A stretch of 64,000 nucleotides of DNA. Source: Chiloscyllium plagiosum. Taxonomy: Eukaryota. Below the pieces are notes generated by a model. That model searched no databases. It was given only the letters and a program-made list of their open reading frames with translations, and was not told the origin of the DNA. The position numbers and the translations under genes were made by a program. Location of the stretch: assembly GCF_004010195.1 (NCBI RefSeq), contig NC_057751.1, positions 10,613,831 to 10,677,830 of the forward strand, read 5' to 3'. Below, piece after piece: positions 4,673-43,425 of the stretch; position 1 is the first letter of the stretch; every line of letters begins with the position of its first letter.

Positions 4673-4902
4673 TTCGGTACATATTAGTTCTTGAGTATAG
4701 CAACAGGTGTCGGATGTTGATCTCTTCTCGCCTGCTTTGCCATTTAGTGGGACTGTGACTGATCTGTTTTTAATTACATTTACTCATTTTCACACCCTGT
4801 CCTTTAATAGATATTTAACCCAAGGTCTTGTGGTTATAATCTTGTTTACAAGTGAGACAGATGCAGTCAGTATTTTCATAAGGGCATTATCTTGTTTTCA
4901 AG

Positions 4903-5216
4903 GCTTTCAAAAAGTTTGAACATTATTCTCTTCAAGATAATGAGAGACGGTTGAAAGAACTGGAGAAGAAACTCAAGAGCAAGAACGTGGAAGAGGACAA
5001 ACCATGCGTTCCACTTCCTGGCCAGGAGGTGGAGGTTGAGTCAACAGCAGAGGAACAACCAGAAGCAGAAGCAAGAGAGTCAGATGAACAGAACAGCAAG
5101 CCAACGCAGAATGATGATCAAAAGATGCCTGCAGATTTTCAGCAAGTGATTGATCCACCACTCGAGGGCGCTGCTGCAGCCCCAGTTGTGAAAAAGGAGC
5201 AGTCTGACCCATTGAA
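4903..5216 (+). CDS. nudcd3: NudC domain-containing protein 3, coding exon 2 (AFKKFEHYSLQDNERRLKELEKKLKSK...EQSDPL)
   Basis: Acceptor ttgttttcaAG ends at 4902 and donor GTatgt starts at 5217. The 314 nt exon is open and ends in phase 2. Translation resembles human NUDCD3 exon 2 as recalled (VFKTFDHMARQDDEKRRQELEEK...PVPVQEIEIDST). It splices in frame to 14193. Confidence 0.9.
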
Positions 5217-5629
5217 GTATGTGTGCACATTTATTCTAAGATAAAATGCAAATAAGAATCTGTATCGTTTCTTTGAGGTGGCTCTGAGGATATTGGTAGT
5301 TGCAATAGCCTTTTGCCGGAGACCTGAAATGGGTTAGTGTCTTTGCTTCTTTCTTGTTTCACTCAAATGTCACCTGACTGTGTGAAGTAAATGTGACAGA
5401 TTCTCTACTGCATTGCAGATATTACTTGTCACGGGGTTTGATTCACTGTCTGACTGCTCCCCATCTAGTGTTTGTACTTGGCTTTAGCTGTGTCCCAGCT
5501 TGAATGACTGGTGAACAGAGTTTTAAAATGAGACAAGTGGATGCGTCTTAGAAAGCACAATGGGAAGTAACAATGTAAAGTAAACAGTAAGATTTTAAAA
5601 AGTGAGCAGAGAATCACCAAATTGTATAA

Positions 5630-13325: not shown

Positions 13326-14192
13326 GTGCTCCATTGAAAAAAATTGTGCATTTGGTAACTTAGTACATTGGATGCCTGACCGACATAAAAAGCCAAAACA
13401 TTAACATGCAGTATTGAAACTTGAGATACATTTAAGATGATGCAAATGTTTTTGTTGGACCCACTCTGCTAAATGCCCACAGTTGGTGGTCCTTTTCCTG
13501 AAATTTACAGCAATGTTTTCTGAGTGTCTATGAAACTTTATGACCAGGAAGATGTAAATGAAGATTTTTGTTGCTTCATTAATGAACAAACATGAACCTT
13601 GTCGCTTTCGCATTGAGAAGTGATTTATCACATCATATCATAGTGACTTGGCTCATCTGTGTGAAAATGAAGCTGTCCATTGCCCAGTTTTTCACCACCA
13701 ATACCACCTCCAAACTGGGTGAGTTATTGGTTAAGATGCCAGATAAAACCTCTTTGGTTGTTAAAATCCCTCAGCTGGTCAAGGATGTCCTATGTCACAG
13801 ATCTAAAATTAAACAAATGGAGAACTGCTGTAAGTTGGACAATTCTGAAGCTTCTTCAAGCTGGGTTTGATTTATGTACAGCTGAAGAGATCCATAGAAC
13901 ATGTTTGGGTGATGCTGTTGTAACATTTGATTGGCATGAATCTGTGTCATGAAATTATCTGAGGGTTCATACCATTTTGGATATTGAGGTTTAAAGAAAT
14001 GGCAATGTTTTGCACTTGGTACGCATGTGGTTGTGTACCCATGGCTCAGTTGTTCTTCTAGTTGTGTTCTGTGGAGAAAGTTTGATGACTTTGGTACTGA
14101 GAGGTGGGAAAGTCATAGTCTGCAAATTTATTGTCTGACGTTATAGGAATGGCACATTGCTTGTGCTGACTTTTTTCTTGGTTTATTTGCAG

Positions 14193-14316
14193 GAAATGTG
14201 CAGAAAATTCTGACAGTTACAATGGGGCTGTGAGGGACAACTACACTTGGTCCCAGGATTACACTGACCTGGAAGTGAAAGTGCCAGTGTCCAAGGAAAT
14301 TGTGAAAGGAAGACAG
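14193..14316 (+). CDS. nudcd3: NUDCD3 coding exon 3 (KCAENSDSYNGAVRDNYTWSQDYTDLEVKVPVSKEIVKGRQ), start of the CS/p23 domain
   Basis: Polypyrimidine tract plus tttgcAG ends at 14192, donor GTaaaa at 14317. Length is 124 nt (1+123), matching the phase of exon 2. Contains the DSYNGAVR.NYTWSQDYTDLEV motif of NUDCD3. Not in the ORF track. Confidence 0.95.
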
Positions 14317-15534
14317 GTAAAATCATATGTAATGCATGGCACGCAACTTGTTCACATAAGTGGATAGCCTTGTGTTCCAGATTTGAGTTCACACCTTCCC
14401 TCTTGAAACAATGAAAGGGTGTCATGCTGAAGACTAAAATGGTTATGATTTGAACCAGAACACCACAAAACTGTTCTGGTGAAGTTCCAGGTTTGTTTCT
14501 TGACTTGTGCTGTAGCAGCAGTTCAGTGCAGCTAACAGCTTTTATTGCTGAGCACTGTATGTTTTGGGAAGCATGTGTTTAATTGCAATCAGAGTCAAGC
14601 TCTGAGAGGGAAAAAAAAGGTGTTAGTCAGGCTTTGGTCTGACACAAGAATAGTTTACTGGGTGGGTAGACATATCCTTGTAGAACCAATGAAACTATTC
14701 AGGACAAGTTCGTTCCTTCAGGAGGTGCAGGCAGTAAATTATGATGGAGAAGTAAGACTGAAGTAGACTGGGTGCTGAAAAATAAGACTTGACAGTATAA
14801 TCCTGTCTGATGTTACAACTGGACAAGTCAGATCCCAGACTGAAATTTGGCTTGATCGTTTTTGTTTTGTTTCTGTTCAACAAAGTTTATCCCATTAGAT
14901 TACAGTCCTAAAATATCAGTGAGAATTCACTTCTGTATCATGGGAAGGTTTGACTTAATTGTTGACGTCAGTTCCCAGTCTTGAGAGATTGATAGCATCT
15001 TCTTTGATTATTTGCATCATAGAACTGAGATATTCTCAGCTTTGAAACACCTCTTCAGGGTTCTGGTCTGATGCTTGAAAACTAAAATCCTTGCACTGAG
15101 CTAACCTGTTTGCTAACTTGGCTAGACTGACTCCTTCTCTGAGATGAACTGTCTTATGCTTCGAGCTTCAACCAGGACCTCTCCCAATTCCAACCAAAAA
15201 AGCTTTCCAAGATGTGGATTTTTGATCTGAATATAAAAAGATGTAATTCTAATACTTCTAAGCTGAAAGCAAGACCATGCTTATCAATTTAACTCTACCT
15301 GCTTGTACAAGTCTCCCAATAAAAAGAAATTCCCATGATCACCCCAGAAAGCCTTTATCTCACACTGCATGAGAAAAAACTCAATCAGTACTGGCAGGGC
15401 ATCATTGAAACATTACCCCCCAAATTAGAAAGAGTGGGTCGGTTTGAGATAATGTAAGGAACAATGTCAGAGAACATTAATCACATATCCAGCATTTGAG
15501 CAAAAGACAGGTCTGTGCATTGATGCAATTTGTA

Positions 15535-16405: not shown

Positions 16406-17100
16406 GTTATGTTCTGTTCTGCCTAAAGTTGTGCACAGAATGCTGTTGTCAAAATATTTCCAAATGTTGAGCTTTATGCTAGTTCCTGATGCAGGATGGG
16501 CAGTAGGCTGACCGCTAGATGCATTGTAAAGCAGCAAAAGACGTATTTGGTGCATTGTCTATTCTGGTTCTTTGACAAAATATTTCAGTTCAGGTCCCTA
16601 CCTGTACACTTTTCTCCATATCCCTGCAGTTCCTTTCTTGATCACATGTTTATCTAATTCTGTTTGAAGGTTTTGATTGAATCTGTTTCAGTTCACCAAA
16701 CAGACAATGTGTTCCAAGTCATATTGCATAATTACATGCAATCCTTGGCATTTTCTGTTACTTGGTGTTGCAGACTGTTGTTTATTTTTTTAAAATTTGA
16801 CTTTTTCCATTCCACTCGTAGGAGGAATTACTTCAGTTTTGTTTGCTAGCTTAGTTTCATCCCCTCGGATCCAGCATAGAAAGATAGTTATAGGTTGAAA
16901 ACCTAGCAGAAGCTCAGGATTATCAAACCTCTGAAAGCTGAACACAGACTTGAAATTGCAGTGAAGCATGTCAAGACCATCAAAATCTTCTTGACTCACA
17001 TAAAATGTAATTAGAAGTAGAACTGATGTGGATGAGTGATGCTGCTGACAAAATGAGAAAGGTTGTAATTGCATTTTCTTTTGTTCTTTGTTTCCCACAG

Positions 17101-17244
17101 GTTTCTGTTGACATACAGAGCAACAGTCTGCGTGTTGCTGTTTTGGAAGGAGGGAATGAGCGAGTCATTGTGGATGGAAAGCTGACACATAAGATCAATA
17201 CAGAAAACTCTATGTGGAGCTTAGAACCGGGACACTGCATCTTG
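17101..17244 (+). CDS. nudcd3: NUDCD3 coding exon 4 (VSVDIQSNSLRVAVLEGGNERVIVDGKLTHKINTENSMWSLEPGHCIL)
   Basis: Acceptor tttcccacAG ends at 17100, donor GTaagg at 17245. Length 144 nt, phase 0. Matches the NUDCD3 CS domain (GKLTHKINTE.S.WSLEPG). Confidence 0.95.
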
Positions 17245-17499
17245 GTAAGGCTACCAACATTTCATACAATGTTTGACATAAATATAGGCAGTTTGGCTGA
17301 AGAGATTCATACGGGTGTGAACGTTTTATTCAAATGATCTCCCACTCATCATTTTACCTCATCAGTATAGCCATTTGATTTCTCCTCTATGGTTTTATCA
17401 AGCTACCATGAAATGTAGTAATCAAGGTTTCCAAAATGGGCAGTAATGAGCCAGTGACATGAATCCTGTCACCAGTCTCACCAAATCATGAACAGCAGG

Positions 17500-21133: not shown

Positions 21134-21669
21134 CAGGTATAGTGTGTGTGTCCCTTGCTAGTTGAGATCTTGGTCTGCATGGATCTCATTATCTGTTTGT
21201 CCTTGCATGTATGATCCTTTTTCGAATTGACACAGTTAAATAAGAAAAGTCTGAATTGTTTCACATTAGATTTAAGATTGATTGATTGTTCAACTTTGCT
21301 TTAGCTTATTACTTAATTGATGGTGATGCCATTGATGGATCTATGTTTAAGCTATCAAAATGTCTCTCTGTTGTTTGTGCTTTGGACACTTTGATTAGTT
21401 ACTATGTGAATTCGTTTTGATCAGGTCCGATAGTTGTGAGACAGACAAAAGGATCAGAACTGACGTGCATTTCAGTGTAATTTTTTTCATGGGGGGCCAT
21501 GTGACTGAATATTATCTAAAACTCCTGATTTGTGATCTAATTACTGTACCGGTCACAATGTTAAACCTTTGGTAAATCCTTATCTCAACTACTCCTGGCT
21601 ACCAGATAAAGACCAGGAACTACTCTTGAACTTGGCCAGTCTGCAGAGTTGGCTCTGATGAGCTTACAT

Positions 21670-21762
21670 TGAGAGTGTGATGTTGGAAAAGCACAGGAGG
21701 TGAGGCAGCACCTGAGGAGCAGGAGAATCGATGTTTCGGGCTTAAGCCCTTCATCAGGAGTC
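21670..21762 (-). mobile_element. PLE terminal fragment with a decayed hammerhead
   Basis: Minus strand: CTGATGA-A-GGGC(TTAA)GCCC-GAAAC-ATC-GATTCTCC. Same family as 25003-25204. Confidence 0.75.
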
Positions 21763-22439
21763 TGATAAATTTGTTGAAGGTTGTTTTCTGTCCATCTCTG
21801 CCAGAGCTCTGCTGCTGGACCAGGTTGAGTCCTCACTGAGGGAATGGCGGCCATGTGTCCCTTGTAATCCCTCCCTGCTAACACCTCCTAGAATGTTCGC
21901 TGGCCCTGAGCTCATTGATTTTCAGGGTTGAGCTTACAGAATCCACTGGGATCCCGAGTGCCACATGTGGAAAATGCTGGGGCTGCAGTCGATGTCCATT
22001 CCCCCGATGTGTCATGAACATTCCCTTCTCAATATGTGTTCAAGGCAGGAACCCAGGGCTCCAGCGAGTCTGCTGGCTGTACTTCAACACACAAACCAAT
22101 CTCGTTTTGCAGGCCAAGTCCAGCCTTGTCCTTGCCTGCTTTTGTCTTGTGTGGATGTTTTGTGCTTGTCCTGTGCTGAAAGTCTTATCGGGCCTGGCCA
22201 CTCTCTGGTGGCCCATTCTTGTTTCAGGCCTTGCCATTCAAGCACTGGGCCATCAGGCCTCATATCCTACCCCTCGCCTTAAATAAGCAGAGATGTCCTC
22301 CCATTGAAGACTGAGTTCACTGCTCAATGCTATGCTTTTCTCCTGCAGTCTTGACTGATCTCCCACACATGAGGTCCATAAACATGAAAGGTCACGGAAA
22401 CCTCTGCTTCTTGTATTTTAACTCGCACCAGGTCCCTTT

Positions 22440-24432: not shown

Positions 24433-25002
24433 TCATACCAAAATTCTTCTTCAGTGCAAGAATTCTGCTTCTCTTCACAGATGCTGCGTTTCTCCAGCAA
24501 TGCCTGTATTTGTTTCAGATTTCCAGCAGCAACAGTCTTTTCCTTTTACAAATTTATAGACTTTATCACCATGCATTAATTGCACTGAACCAGTCAGTCA
24601 TAGTGTTTCGTGCTTCTCTTTATGAAGGAAGTGAAGTTGGGGAATCACTGCCAGTTACCTAACCCTCCCCACCTGCTGCTGTTCGGAGTCTTTTGAGGCA
24701 TTTGTGACTTTTGGCATAGGCCTGTTTGTCATTTGGCTTTTCAGATGTGTGGTATGGTGTGAAGAAGCAGGCACAAGGTACATTCACGTTTTGAAAAAAT
24801 GTGGAAGTAAATTTCCTCAGCTGACCCGTTGGGTAAGCATTAATGAGACAAATGACATCTTAGCACTGCATTGTTGAAAGCTATTTTGAGGAAGGAGGAA
24901 GTCAGTGAGGGTTCCTACTCGAGTTGTCGAGTAATGGTTGTTTAAAAGTGTGCAGTTATGAAAACCATTTTCAGACAACGACATGACTGGCAAATGCATG
25001 TT

Positions 25003-25204
25003 CTGGATCAGTGGTGCTGGAAGAGCACAGCAATTTAGGCAGCATCCAAGGACAGGCAAAATCGACGTTTCGGGCAATCCTGATGAAGGGCTTTTGCCCG
25101 AAACGTCGATTTTGTCTGTCCTCGGACGCTGCCTGAATTGCTGTGCTCTTCCAGCACCACTGATCCAGAATCTGGTTTCCAGCGTCTGCAGTCATTGTTT
25201 TTAT
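25003..25204 (+). mobile_element. Fold-back PLE-derived mini-element with a perfect 16-bp TSD
   Basis: TSD ctggcaaatgcatgtt at 24987-25002 and 25205-25220. Inverted arms of 77 nt (25001-25077 / 25094-25170) differ at 4 positions. Confidence 0.9.
25076..25111 (+). ncRNA. Minimal type I hammerhead ribozyme motif, intact-looking
   Basis: AATC-CTGATGA-A-GGGC(TTTT)GCCC-GAAAC-GTC-GATT. Full core, 4 bp stem I, 4 bp stem II and a vestigial palindromic stem III (ACGU). Predicted cleavage after C25107. Confidence 0.8.
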
Positions 25205-25524
25205 CTGGCAAATGCATGTTTCATTCGATCTCCTCGCCCTCCCATTCCATAATATTCCGTTCCCTGTTGAAATCTTACTCAGTGTCTCTGTTCGACAGAG
25301 TGAATAACTAATTGTTCGAGAATAATGTGGGTGCTGGGACAAGAGGAAGTTCCTTGAGTGTCAGTGTTTCCCATTGGGGAAGCCAAGTCGGTTTTGGGAG
25401 GAGAAAAGGATAGAATGTGGTTGAGTTAGTCAGTCAGATGAGGAAGGATTGAGGCTGTGAAGCTTAATGCAGTGCAAACAGCAACATCTGATTGGGTATG
25501 TGTAAGCAGAGAACAGTTTTGTTT

Positions 25525-25865
25525 TCTTTATTCATAGCTTGTGTGTATCACTGGTTTGGCCAGCATTTGTTACCACAATTGCTTGCCACAATGTGGTCAA
25601 GCTTGTTGCTGTGAGTCTGGAGTCAAGTGTAGGCCAGACCAAACAAGACCAGCAGTTTCCTTCCTGAAAGGACATTTGTGAACCAGATTTTTTTTGCTGG
25701 CATTCAATTGTAGTTTTGTAGTCATCATTAGAATCTTAATTTAACTTTAAAAGTCTGGAATTCAAATTCTACCATTTGCTATGGTGGGTCTCAAACCTGG
25801 GTCCCCAGAATATGACTTGGCTCTTTGGATTAAGATTTTAGTGATAAAAACACTCCAGCATTACC
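25525..25865 (-). mobile_element. tRNA-derived SINE, same family as 18785-19080
   Basis: Shared body and tail, plus a head-like segment atggtgggtctcaaacctgggtccccagaa. Confidence 0.7.
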
Positions 25866-34506: not shown

Positions 34507-34695
34507 ATTAACCTGAATAAAAATGGTGAATATTGGTGGAATGCAATTCTCGAAGGTGAAGAGACAATTGACATAGAGAAGATAAACAAAGAACGGTCAA
34601 TGGCAACAGTGGATGAGGAGGAACATGCAGTGCTGGACAGACTAACATTTGATTATCATCAGAAAATGCAGGGCAAACCACAGAGCCATGAAATG
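34507..34695 (+). CDS. nudcd3: NUDCD3 coding exon 5 (INLNKNGEYWWNAILEGEETIDIEKINKERSMATVDEEEHAVLDRLTFDYHQKMQGKPQSHEM)
   Basis: Acceptor ttaacAG ends at 34506, donor GTaagc at 34696. Length 189 nt, phase 0. Very similar to vertebrate NUDCD3. Not in the ORF track. Confidence 0.96.
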
Positions 34696-43314: not shown

Positions 43315-43425
43315 AAAGTGCACGAGATGTTGAAGAAGGGCTGGGATGCTGAAGGCTCACCATTTAAAGGACAAACGTTTGATCCCTCTCTGTTTAACAT
43401 TTCTCCTGGAGCTGTACAGTTCTAA
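43315..43425 (+). CDS. nudcd3: NUDCD3 last coding exon (KVHEMLKKGWDAEGSPFKGQTFDPSLFNISPGAVQF*)
   Basis: Acceptor tttccAG ends at 43314 and TAA stop at 43423-43425. The C-terminus matches NUDCD3 (...FNISPGAVQF). Confidence 0.96.
   Translation, partial: KVHEMLKKGWDAEGSPFKGQTFDPSLFNISPGAVQF

Follow-up and report, generated by a model that had tools for sequence, protein, structure and literature searches.

The 202-bp element at positions 25003-25204 of the window (the whole 64,000-nucleotide stretch of Chiloscyllium plagiosum contig NC_057751.1 analyzed here) is very probably a single insertion in which two 3' ends of a Penelope-like element (PLE), both with extreme 5' truncation, face in opposite directions, most likely produced by cutting and priming on both target strands. 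The element is an ordinary, if minimal, PLE integration product in a genome with tens of thousands of such fragments. This agrees with the first of two readings offered in an initial annotation of the same DNA, namely, an extreme 5'-truncated and inverted PLE insertion, as the arms are PLE 3' ends, one of them carries the tail, the other has the tail-less end, and the inversion point is variable among copies. In the following, reference positions are those of a natural long copy (L055:1119-1570), on which the CTGATGA box occupies 327-333 and the predicted cut separates 354 from 355; tail-less copies end near 417, and 452 is the last position of the element. The features of the locus are as follows:

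24987-25002, no strand: left copy of the target site duplication, matching 25205-25220 at 16 of 16 positions; its last 2 bases are possibly element derived
25003-25077, minus strand: inverted, tail-less, 5'-truncated PLE 3' end, matching reference 341-417 of L055
25076-25111, plus strand: minimal type I hammerhead motif, identified by direct reading, with the predicted cut after C25107
25078-25170, plus strand: direct 5'-truncated PLE 3' end, starting 2 nt before CTGATGA and matching reference 325-450
25171-25204, plus strand: 34-nt PLE tail, at the right end only, common to 28 other copies and with 7028 matches to a 24-mer across the arm/tail boundary
25205-25220, no strand: right copy of the target site duplication, found by repeat search; its first base is possibly element derived

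A repeat search identified the direct repeat CTGGCAAATGCATGTT at 24987-25002 and 25205-25220, identical at all 16 positions, in agreement with the perfect 16-bp target site duplication (TSD) reported initially. Comparison with other copies indicated that this repeat is overlapped by 1 to 3 bases of the element's own ends (left ..TTCTGG, right ..TTTTTA[C/T]C), and because of this overlap the true target duplication is put at 13 to 16 bp rather than simply 16. Alignment of the shark NUDCD3 protein revealed coding sequence on the plus strand at 4891-5217, 14188-14319, ~16993-17253, 34507-34692, and 43315-43422, including a CS-domain exon (window 17095-17247, plus strand) whose closest named relatives were elasmobranch nudC domain-containing protein 3. 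Because the 202-bp element sits between the aligned exons ending at 17253 and starting at 34507, the latter being the penultimate coding exon, it is placed by this alignment in the NUDCD3 intron between them. The hammerhead strand is the NUDCD3 sense strand. The location described earlier, a NUDCD3 intron in sense orientation, was thus recovered with shark NUDCD3 exons aligned on the plus strand on either side, while the number assigned to it (intron 4) holds only if NUDCD3 residues 1-62, which fall outside the window, form a single exon. Two further high-copy repeats flank the locus, at window positions 24500-24560 and 25606-25690, where the summed contig depth exceeds that of the unique flanks by a factor of hundreds to thousands.

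The inverted arms (25001-25077 and 25094-25170) are each 77 nt long, are separated by a 16-nt spacer, and are complementary at 73 of 77 positions (95%). All four differences are transitions, two of them being paired in the predicted fold and the other two forming 1x1 mismatches, which matches the initial description of 77-bp arms with four differences, two of them pairable. The left arm, the reverse complement of reference 341-417, leaves out the last 35 nt of the 3' end. Outward it terminates at the tail-less reverse transcription start site, and inward it breaks off within hammerhead stem II/loop II. The right arm and the tail match the last 128 nt of long natural copies, with bases 25094-25170 pairing with the left arm. 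When 25003-25204 was folded as RNA, a single long hairpin of -152.5 kcal/mol (z = -20.3) was obtained, and the NUDCD3 intronic RNA of the element is predicted to form a 77-bp double-stranded hairpin with no self-cleavage.

The PLE nature of the arms was indicated by long copies, which run on upstream of the hammerhead for hundreds of bases. In two of them (L053 and L040), this continuation enters an open reading frame (ORF) ending ..RLEEERLIFRLGTLQPQG.., and the fragment from L053 shares 73% identity with a shark protein of 486 aa over residues 394-455 of the latter. In that protein, a partial RVT_1 domain (E = 0.0077) is followed by a GIY-YIG domain (E = 0.00025, 21.7 bits against a cutoff of 22.6), these matches being below the curated cutoffs, and no family was returned when the short L053 and L040 fragments themselves were searched against Pfam. 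A reverse transcriptase (RT) followed by a C-terminal GIY-YIG nuclease is the canonical PLE architecture (Frangieh et al. 2024, PMC11167929). Judged from these ORF fragments, with stretches upstream of the hammerhead reading N in most long copies (among them L037, L040, L042, L045, L052, and L059), the presence of RT and GIY-YIG coding sequence in the long copies is supported but not proven. Also supported is the reading of the arms as the 3' end of a PLE family numbering thousands of copies. In addition, an ATG at reference 371 opens, in most copies, a frame (..LLCSSSTTDPESGFQ.LQSLFL) that stays open to the tail end; this frame was noted in L053:1119-1568 (frame 2), and the corresponding window sequence (25126-25204) has ACG for ATG. 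Because the ORF of a lizard PLE starts inside the hammerhead (Frangieh et al. 2024, PMC11167929), the frame from the ATG at reference 371 may be the start of the element's ORF.

Copies were retrieved from the 3.56-Gb genome. Set A comprised the 29 best full-element relatives, window copy included, which were chosen by likeness to the query, while a center-blind sample (n = 129) comprised 29 other best matches to the last 69 nt of the element and the first 100 contig-1 sites of the 24-mer across the arm/tail boundary (7028 exact matches genome-wide versus 0 for the control). Classes were assigned by script, with copies of 165 nt or more considered long. The junction caller overlaps arms at palindromic centers, and because it misplaces some complex copies (L063, L066, L073, L074, L096, and L148), the resulting class counts are good to a few copies: 32 were long, 50 were hairpins, and 47 were plainly truncated; hairpins accordingly amounted to ~39% of the tail-bearing copies in the center-blind sample. 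The TSD script found a repeat of at least 9 in 54 of 100 copies, at least four of which (L070, L084, L108, and L110) were evidently internal or repetitive matches, and long copies extend beyond the stretch scanned for TSDs. Target duplications were mostly 12 to 18 bp (range, ~10 to 20) and different at every locus.

The initial annotation had raised the question of whether genomic copies share fixed ends and a fixed inversion point. Alignment of set A revealed that the outer ends are shared by all 29 best copies (left ..(A)TTCTGGATCAGTGG, right ..CATTGTTTTTACC), each of which has its own flanking duplication. A fixed inversion point was not found: the central junction was different in almost every copy of set A, in which the end of the left arm ranged from TTTCGG to ..CCCTTCATCAGGAAT and the start of the right part from TTTATTCCTGATGA to CTTTTGCCC, and junctions were spread over ~100 nt in the center-blind samples. 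In the 50 hairpins, direct parts begin at reference 302 to 389 and inverted arms finish at 305 to 399. Within set A, the CTGATGA box is on the opposite strand only in three copies (L013, L026, and L029) and on neither strand in four (L010, L016, L017, and L020). The outer-end motif of the inverted arm was present in 35 hairpins and absent in 15, in some of which the inverted segment stops short of the start site.

These junctions bear directly on the second reading of the initial annotation, that of a heritable nonautonomous hairpin family (SINE- or retrozyme-like) recopied by PLE proteins with a fixed inversion point and an apex hammerhead, which we consider unlikely. Near-full-length copies with fixed outer ends are indeed abundant (40 of 2155 first-look candidates were scored, all of them 86 to 97% identical over positions 1-201), the junction 28-mer has 580 matches at two mismatches or fewer (2 of them exact), and both strands end in a reverse transcription entry site, so that either transcript could in principle serve as a template. 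However, center-blind sampling spreads the junctions as described above, and the nearest relatives of the element (the 29 best) all have other junctions. The other exact junction match (L161) comes from a different family, and the PLE families represented by 40 fetched copies sharing GGGC-A(T/A)TCC(TGA) number at least five, clearly distinct from one another in arms, loops, and tails, with every copy having its own flanks. Moreover, 580 is less than 1% of the ~60,000 or more hammerhead-bearing copies. In the center-blind sample, the direct part started at 322-324 in 12 copies out of 129, and 4 of the 50 hairpins had an inverted arm ending at 340-343; on a rough estimate, the joint frequency given by two such independent hot spots is of the same order as that fraction. 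The shared junction is thus read as recurrent rather than inherited, because it is found in at least five families and two independent hot spots suffice to account for it on that rough estimate. The initial annotation had itself named variable inversion points as the observation that speaks against an independently replicating family, and variable inversion points without any tandem arrangement are what the copies present. CUGAAGA, carried by most of the 40 fetched copies, was also considered as a marker of a hairpin lineage and was rejected, as it is normal in the linear copies of the family concerned (prefix CTTTCCTCAT). It is likewise improbable that some hairpins self-propagate, with either-strand transcripts being primed on both target strands and the cDNAs annealing to reproduce the palindrome with precise ends and an inherited junction; if this were true, several hundred GGGC-ATTCC copies with an apex hammerhead would be the progeny of self-propagating palindromic PLE parasites.

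A near-absolute regularity was observed for the tail. The inverted arm lacked a tail in 49 of the 50 hairpins, i.e., the tail was at one end only. Among 40 junction-picked copies, the tail was on one side in 31, on the other side in 7, on neither side in 2, and on both sides in 0; a single tail in 38 of 40 copies is far above what independent choice of the two ends would give, since independence allows at most one half. Under the preferred reading of two opposed PLE 3' ends, the PLE protein would cut both target DNA strands and prime reverse transcription on each of them. One cDNA, begun at the distal start site, would give the tail and the right arm, up to reference 325; the other, made on the opposite strand from the proximal start site, would give the left arm, up to reference 341. 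The two cDNAs would then be joined wherever each had ended, and the complete hammerhead at the apex would be an accident of that junction.

Priming on both strands is proposed here from in vitro work on a lizard PLE, in which the purified protein cleaves and extends both target strands, reverse transcription begins at two adjacent internal RNA sites with the stretch between them forming a 30- to 40-bp tail, and start site use is alike on both strands (Frangieh et al. 2024, PMC11167929). Because start site use showed no strand difference there, the one-tail rule is not explained by the in vitro data, and why each strand uses a different start site is the question that the census poses. PLE insertions have been described as strongly 5' truncated, frequently lying next to an inverted 5'-truncated copy and frequently bearing a tail on just one side (Craig et al. 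2021, PMC8557442), and another report describes pairs of minimal hammerheads on opposite strands, 100 to 700 bp apart (Cervera & de la Pena 2014, PMC4209133). The shark genomic copies mirror the in vitro result for the lizard PLE, providing natural-history support for both-strand priming from two adjacent start sites. The census, with about 4 in 10 tail-bearing copies head to head, a near-absolute one-tail rule, and arms from two templates, agrees with the in vitro model and slightly extends it.

Evidence for two templates was provided by hairpins with discordant arms. L027 (TSD ATCCACAAAC) and L051 (TSD TGAAAATTACCGGA) each have one TSD enclosing arms with different, separately attested subfamily signatures, and discordant arms were also observed in L126, L137, and L067. 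By these signatures, a subset of hairpins demonstrates priming on two templates, not fold-back of one cDNA. Of 45 hairpins, 16 had identical diagnostic segments in their two arms, and a single transition was the sole difference in most of the remaining 29; because of this, most hairpins taken alone do not exclude copying of one arm from the other. That the element is a MITE, or a hairpin generated by fold-back self-priming of one cDNA, is nevertheless very unlikely. Its long terminal inverted repeats with a flanking duplication would fit such an origin, as would the arms of the same subfamily in most hairpins, but subfamily-discordant arms in one TSD, as in L027 and L051, are impossible by fold-back copying. 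Moreover, target duplications vary from ~10 to 20 bp among copies, the arms match, without differences, the 3' terminus of long copies running into an ORF related to an RT/GIY-YIG protein, and the ends are asymmetric. A MITE has inverted repeats reaching both ends and a duplication of fixed length, whereas here 34 nt remain unpaired at the right end and the duplications span ~10 to 20 bp; a one-sided tail, 5' truncation with an inverted copy, and a target duplication of variable length, all of which are present, are traits of EN+ PLE insertions.

Among other systems, a likeness is found in LINE-1 twin priming, in which the opposite DNA strand is primed as well and the 5' part of the insertion becomes inverted between the two copies of a single TSD. 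The likeness lies in the inverted part that comes from second-strand priming within one TSD; the difference is that LINE-1 inversions join adjacent, nonoverlapping RNA stretches, whereas both arms here copy the same stretch from defined internal sites. Complex PLE insertions (Craig et al. 2021, PMC8557442; Frangieh et al. 2024, PMC11167929) share several traits with the element, which likewise is heavily 5' truncated, has an inverted partner and a variable target duplication, carries a hammerhead in its terminal region, and has a one-sided tail (34 nt here versus 30 to 40 bp). The element differs from them in that both of its copies are cut to ~75 to 130 nt, with the whole insertion being a 202-bp hairpin without an internal region. 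No described shark PLE hairpin family was found in the literature searched, which lay outside subscription journals and Repbase. Animal non-LTR retrozymes are similarly short, noncoding, derived from PLE terminal repeats, and equipped with a type I hammerhead (Cervera & de la Pena 2020, PMC7229834; Li et al. 2026, 10.64898/2026.07.22.740005). By the same accounts they are tandem head-to-tail arrays from which monomers are excised and circularized, whereas the element consists of just two head-to-head pieces and has only one hammerhead in sense. Tandem head-to-tail repeats, a retrozyme trait, were absent from 24800-25400, in which the 16-bp duplication was the sole direct repeat; this also counts against the heritable family considered above.

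The age of the insertion was bracketed by related sequences. The empty orthologous site that the initial annotation had suggested looking for was found in a related species (organism D), where a contig of 1004 nt, recovered from runs X15 and X16 of the same study, matches 24603-25002 and 25238-25695 and has just 11 letters between these two stretches. In each flank (~400 to 450 nt), 23 letters, in addition to indels, distinguish this contig from the window. A contig of organism C, by contrast, represents the filled site, spanning 25174-25675 (from the tail through the right flank) with three differences, and organism C is taken from this similarity to be the same or a very close species. Because organism D carries the empty site, the insertion is younger than the split from that organism, and because its arms differ at 4 of 77 positions, it is not very young. 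The earlier description of a fairly recent insertion thus stands as regards the empty site in a related species and is weakened as regards the arms, which have already diverged.

The hammerhead core was identified by direct reading. It comprises AATC (25076-79), CTGATGA (25080-86), A (25087), and GGGC-TTTT-GCCC (25088-99), followed by GAAAC (25100-04), GTC (25105-07), and GATT (25108-11), so that every conserved core position is present at 25076-25111 and the complete core reported initially was recovered. Two occurrences of the 28-nt core were counted in the 64-kb window (25080-25107, plus strand; 21730-21757, minus strand), compared with 0 in 100 shuffles. The second of these belongs to a PLE 3' fragment of another family (window 21650-21770, minus strand) with a complete core, CTGATGAAGGGCTTAAGCCCGAAACATC, at 21730-21757; this fragment has no inverted partner and apparently no tail. 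Genome-wide, exact matches to two hammerhead 25-mers numbered 25,216 (TTTT loop) and 34,523 (TTAT loop, mostly CUGAAGA), each count taking only copies whose tenth upstream base is not T.

Features of PLE minimal hammerheads include a G10.1-C11.1 pair, the absence of helix III with a palindromic ACGU, and a 4-bp helix I (Cervera & de la Pena 2014, PMC4209133). At 25080-25107, we found the CUGANGA and GAAA boxes, H17 after U16.1, and G10.1-C11.1 closing helix II, as well as the extra nucleotide (A25087), the palindromic ACGU at 25103-25106, and no helix III; helix I is 4 bp. The motif differs from the minimal hammerheads of metazoan PLEs (Cervera & de la Pena 2014, PMC4209133) in that the 5' strand of helix I comes partly from the inverted arm and in that a duplex of 77 bp encloses it. 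Helix I takes its two initial bases (the AA of AATC) from the inverted arm, and linear copies of the family have a helix I with a U-U mismatch (AUUC versus GAUU). Since the AA comes from the inverted arm and the linear copies are mismatched, the 4-bp helix I appears to be a product of the junction, and the tidy ribozyme at the apex partly so. The covariance model search suggested in the initial annotation gave no Rfam hammerhead match: a scan of 24500-25700 at an E value of ≤10 returned seven matches, none to hammerhead models (they were hairpin-shaped chance matches to microRNA models), and the whole window returned 0 matches at gathering scores. The Rfam hammerhead families (type I, II, III, HH9, and HH10) thus gave no score at the locus (E ≤ 10) or in the window (gathering scores), as expected for a motif without helix III.

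The hammerhead is called intact-looking in the initial annotation, which holds for the motif and does not hold for the fold. In a thermodynamic computation, forcing helices I and II with an open core gave -121.4 kcal/mol versus -152.5 kcal/mol for the hairpin, a penalty of 31.1 kcal/mol. In the hairpin, the left arm pairs with half of stem II as well as with the 3' half of the core, and the hammerhead is predicted to be locked inside. An active self-cleaving ribozyme that cuts the NUDCD3 pre-mRNA within the intron, like the intronic hammerheads of amniotes, is therefore a highly improbable reading, in spite of a full set of conserved core positions on the sense strand of the intron and of the fit to the published PLE minimal hammerhead descriptors. 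In addition to the cost of opening the hairpin, in vitro cleavage was undetectable for minimal hammerheads tested singly and weak for dimers (Cervera & de la Pena 2014, PMC4209133), and the hammerhead of the lizard PLE cut only with its protein present, cutting being dispensable for insertion (Frangieh et al. 2024, PMC11167929). No sense partner lies nearby, the other copy in the window being 3.3 kb away and on the opposite strand; the site is empty in a related species; and only about 20 of the 50 hairpins retain the CTGATGA box on the tail-bearing strand. Under the preferred reading, the locus itself is a lineage-specific, probably neutral intronic insertion, the likeliest effect of which would be to give the NUDCD3 pre-mRNA a long stem of double-stranded RNA.

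The ends of genomic copies and of RNA reads were also inspected around the predicted cut. Among 97 short copies, 4 start at reference 354-356 (the cut lies between 354 and 355), compared with about 1 per position nearby; as evidence of cleavage, this pile of 5' ends was rejected as unconvincing, and BLAST-based boundaries had overstated it. No RNA data set was listed as containing the long copy L055:1119-1570. This copy was covered by 854 reads in both orientations with no pile of ends, coming from a single-cell poly(A) library that cannot reveal starts or cleavage, and by 0 reads in a second RNA run. A larger group of short copies (33 of 97) start at reference 317-328 (L055:1435-1446, equivalent to window 25072-25081), just before helix I. 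Many different upstream sequences abut (A)TTCC in hammerhead-bearing copies, and depth rises 10- to 50-fold at L055:1439-1441 in four runs, with hundreds of loose ends. The sequence in this region (TTATTCC or TCATTCC) resembles the initiator element consensus, and the pile-up at reference 317-328 may show where the main template RNA begins.

The apex of the hairpin (25049-25123) also gave chance matches to microRNA precursor models, including one to the mir-373 model (E = 0.0007, 31.9 bits against a gathering score of 69). As this example illustrates, inverted PLE pairs can pass for microRNA genes.
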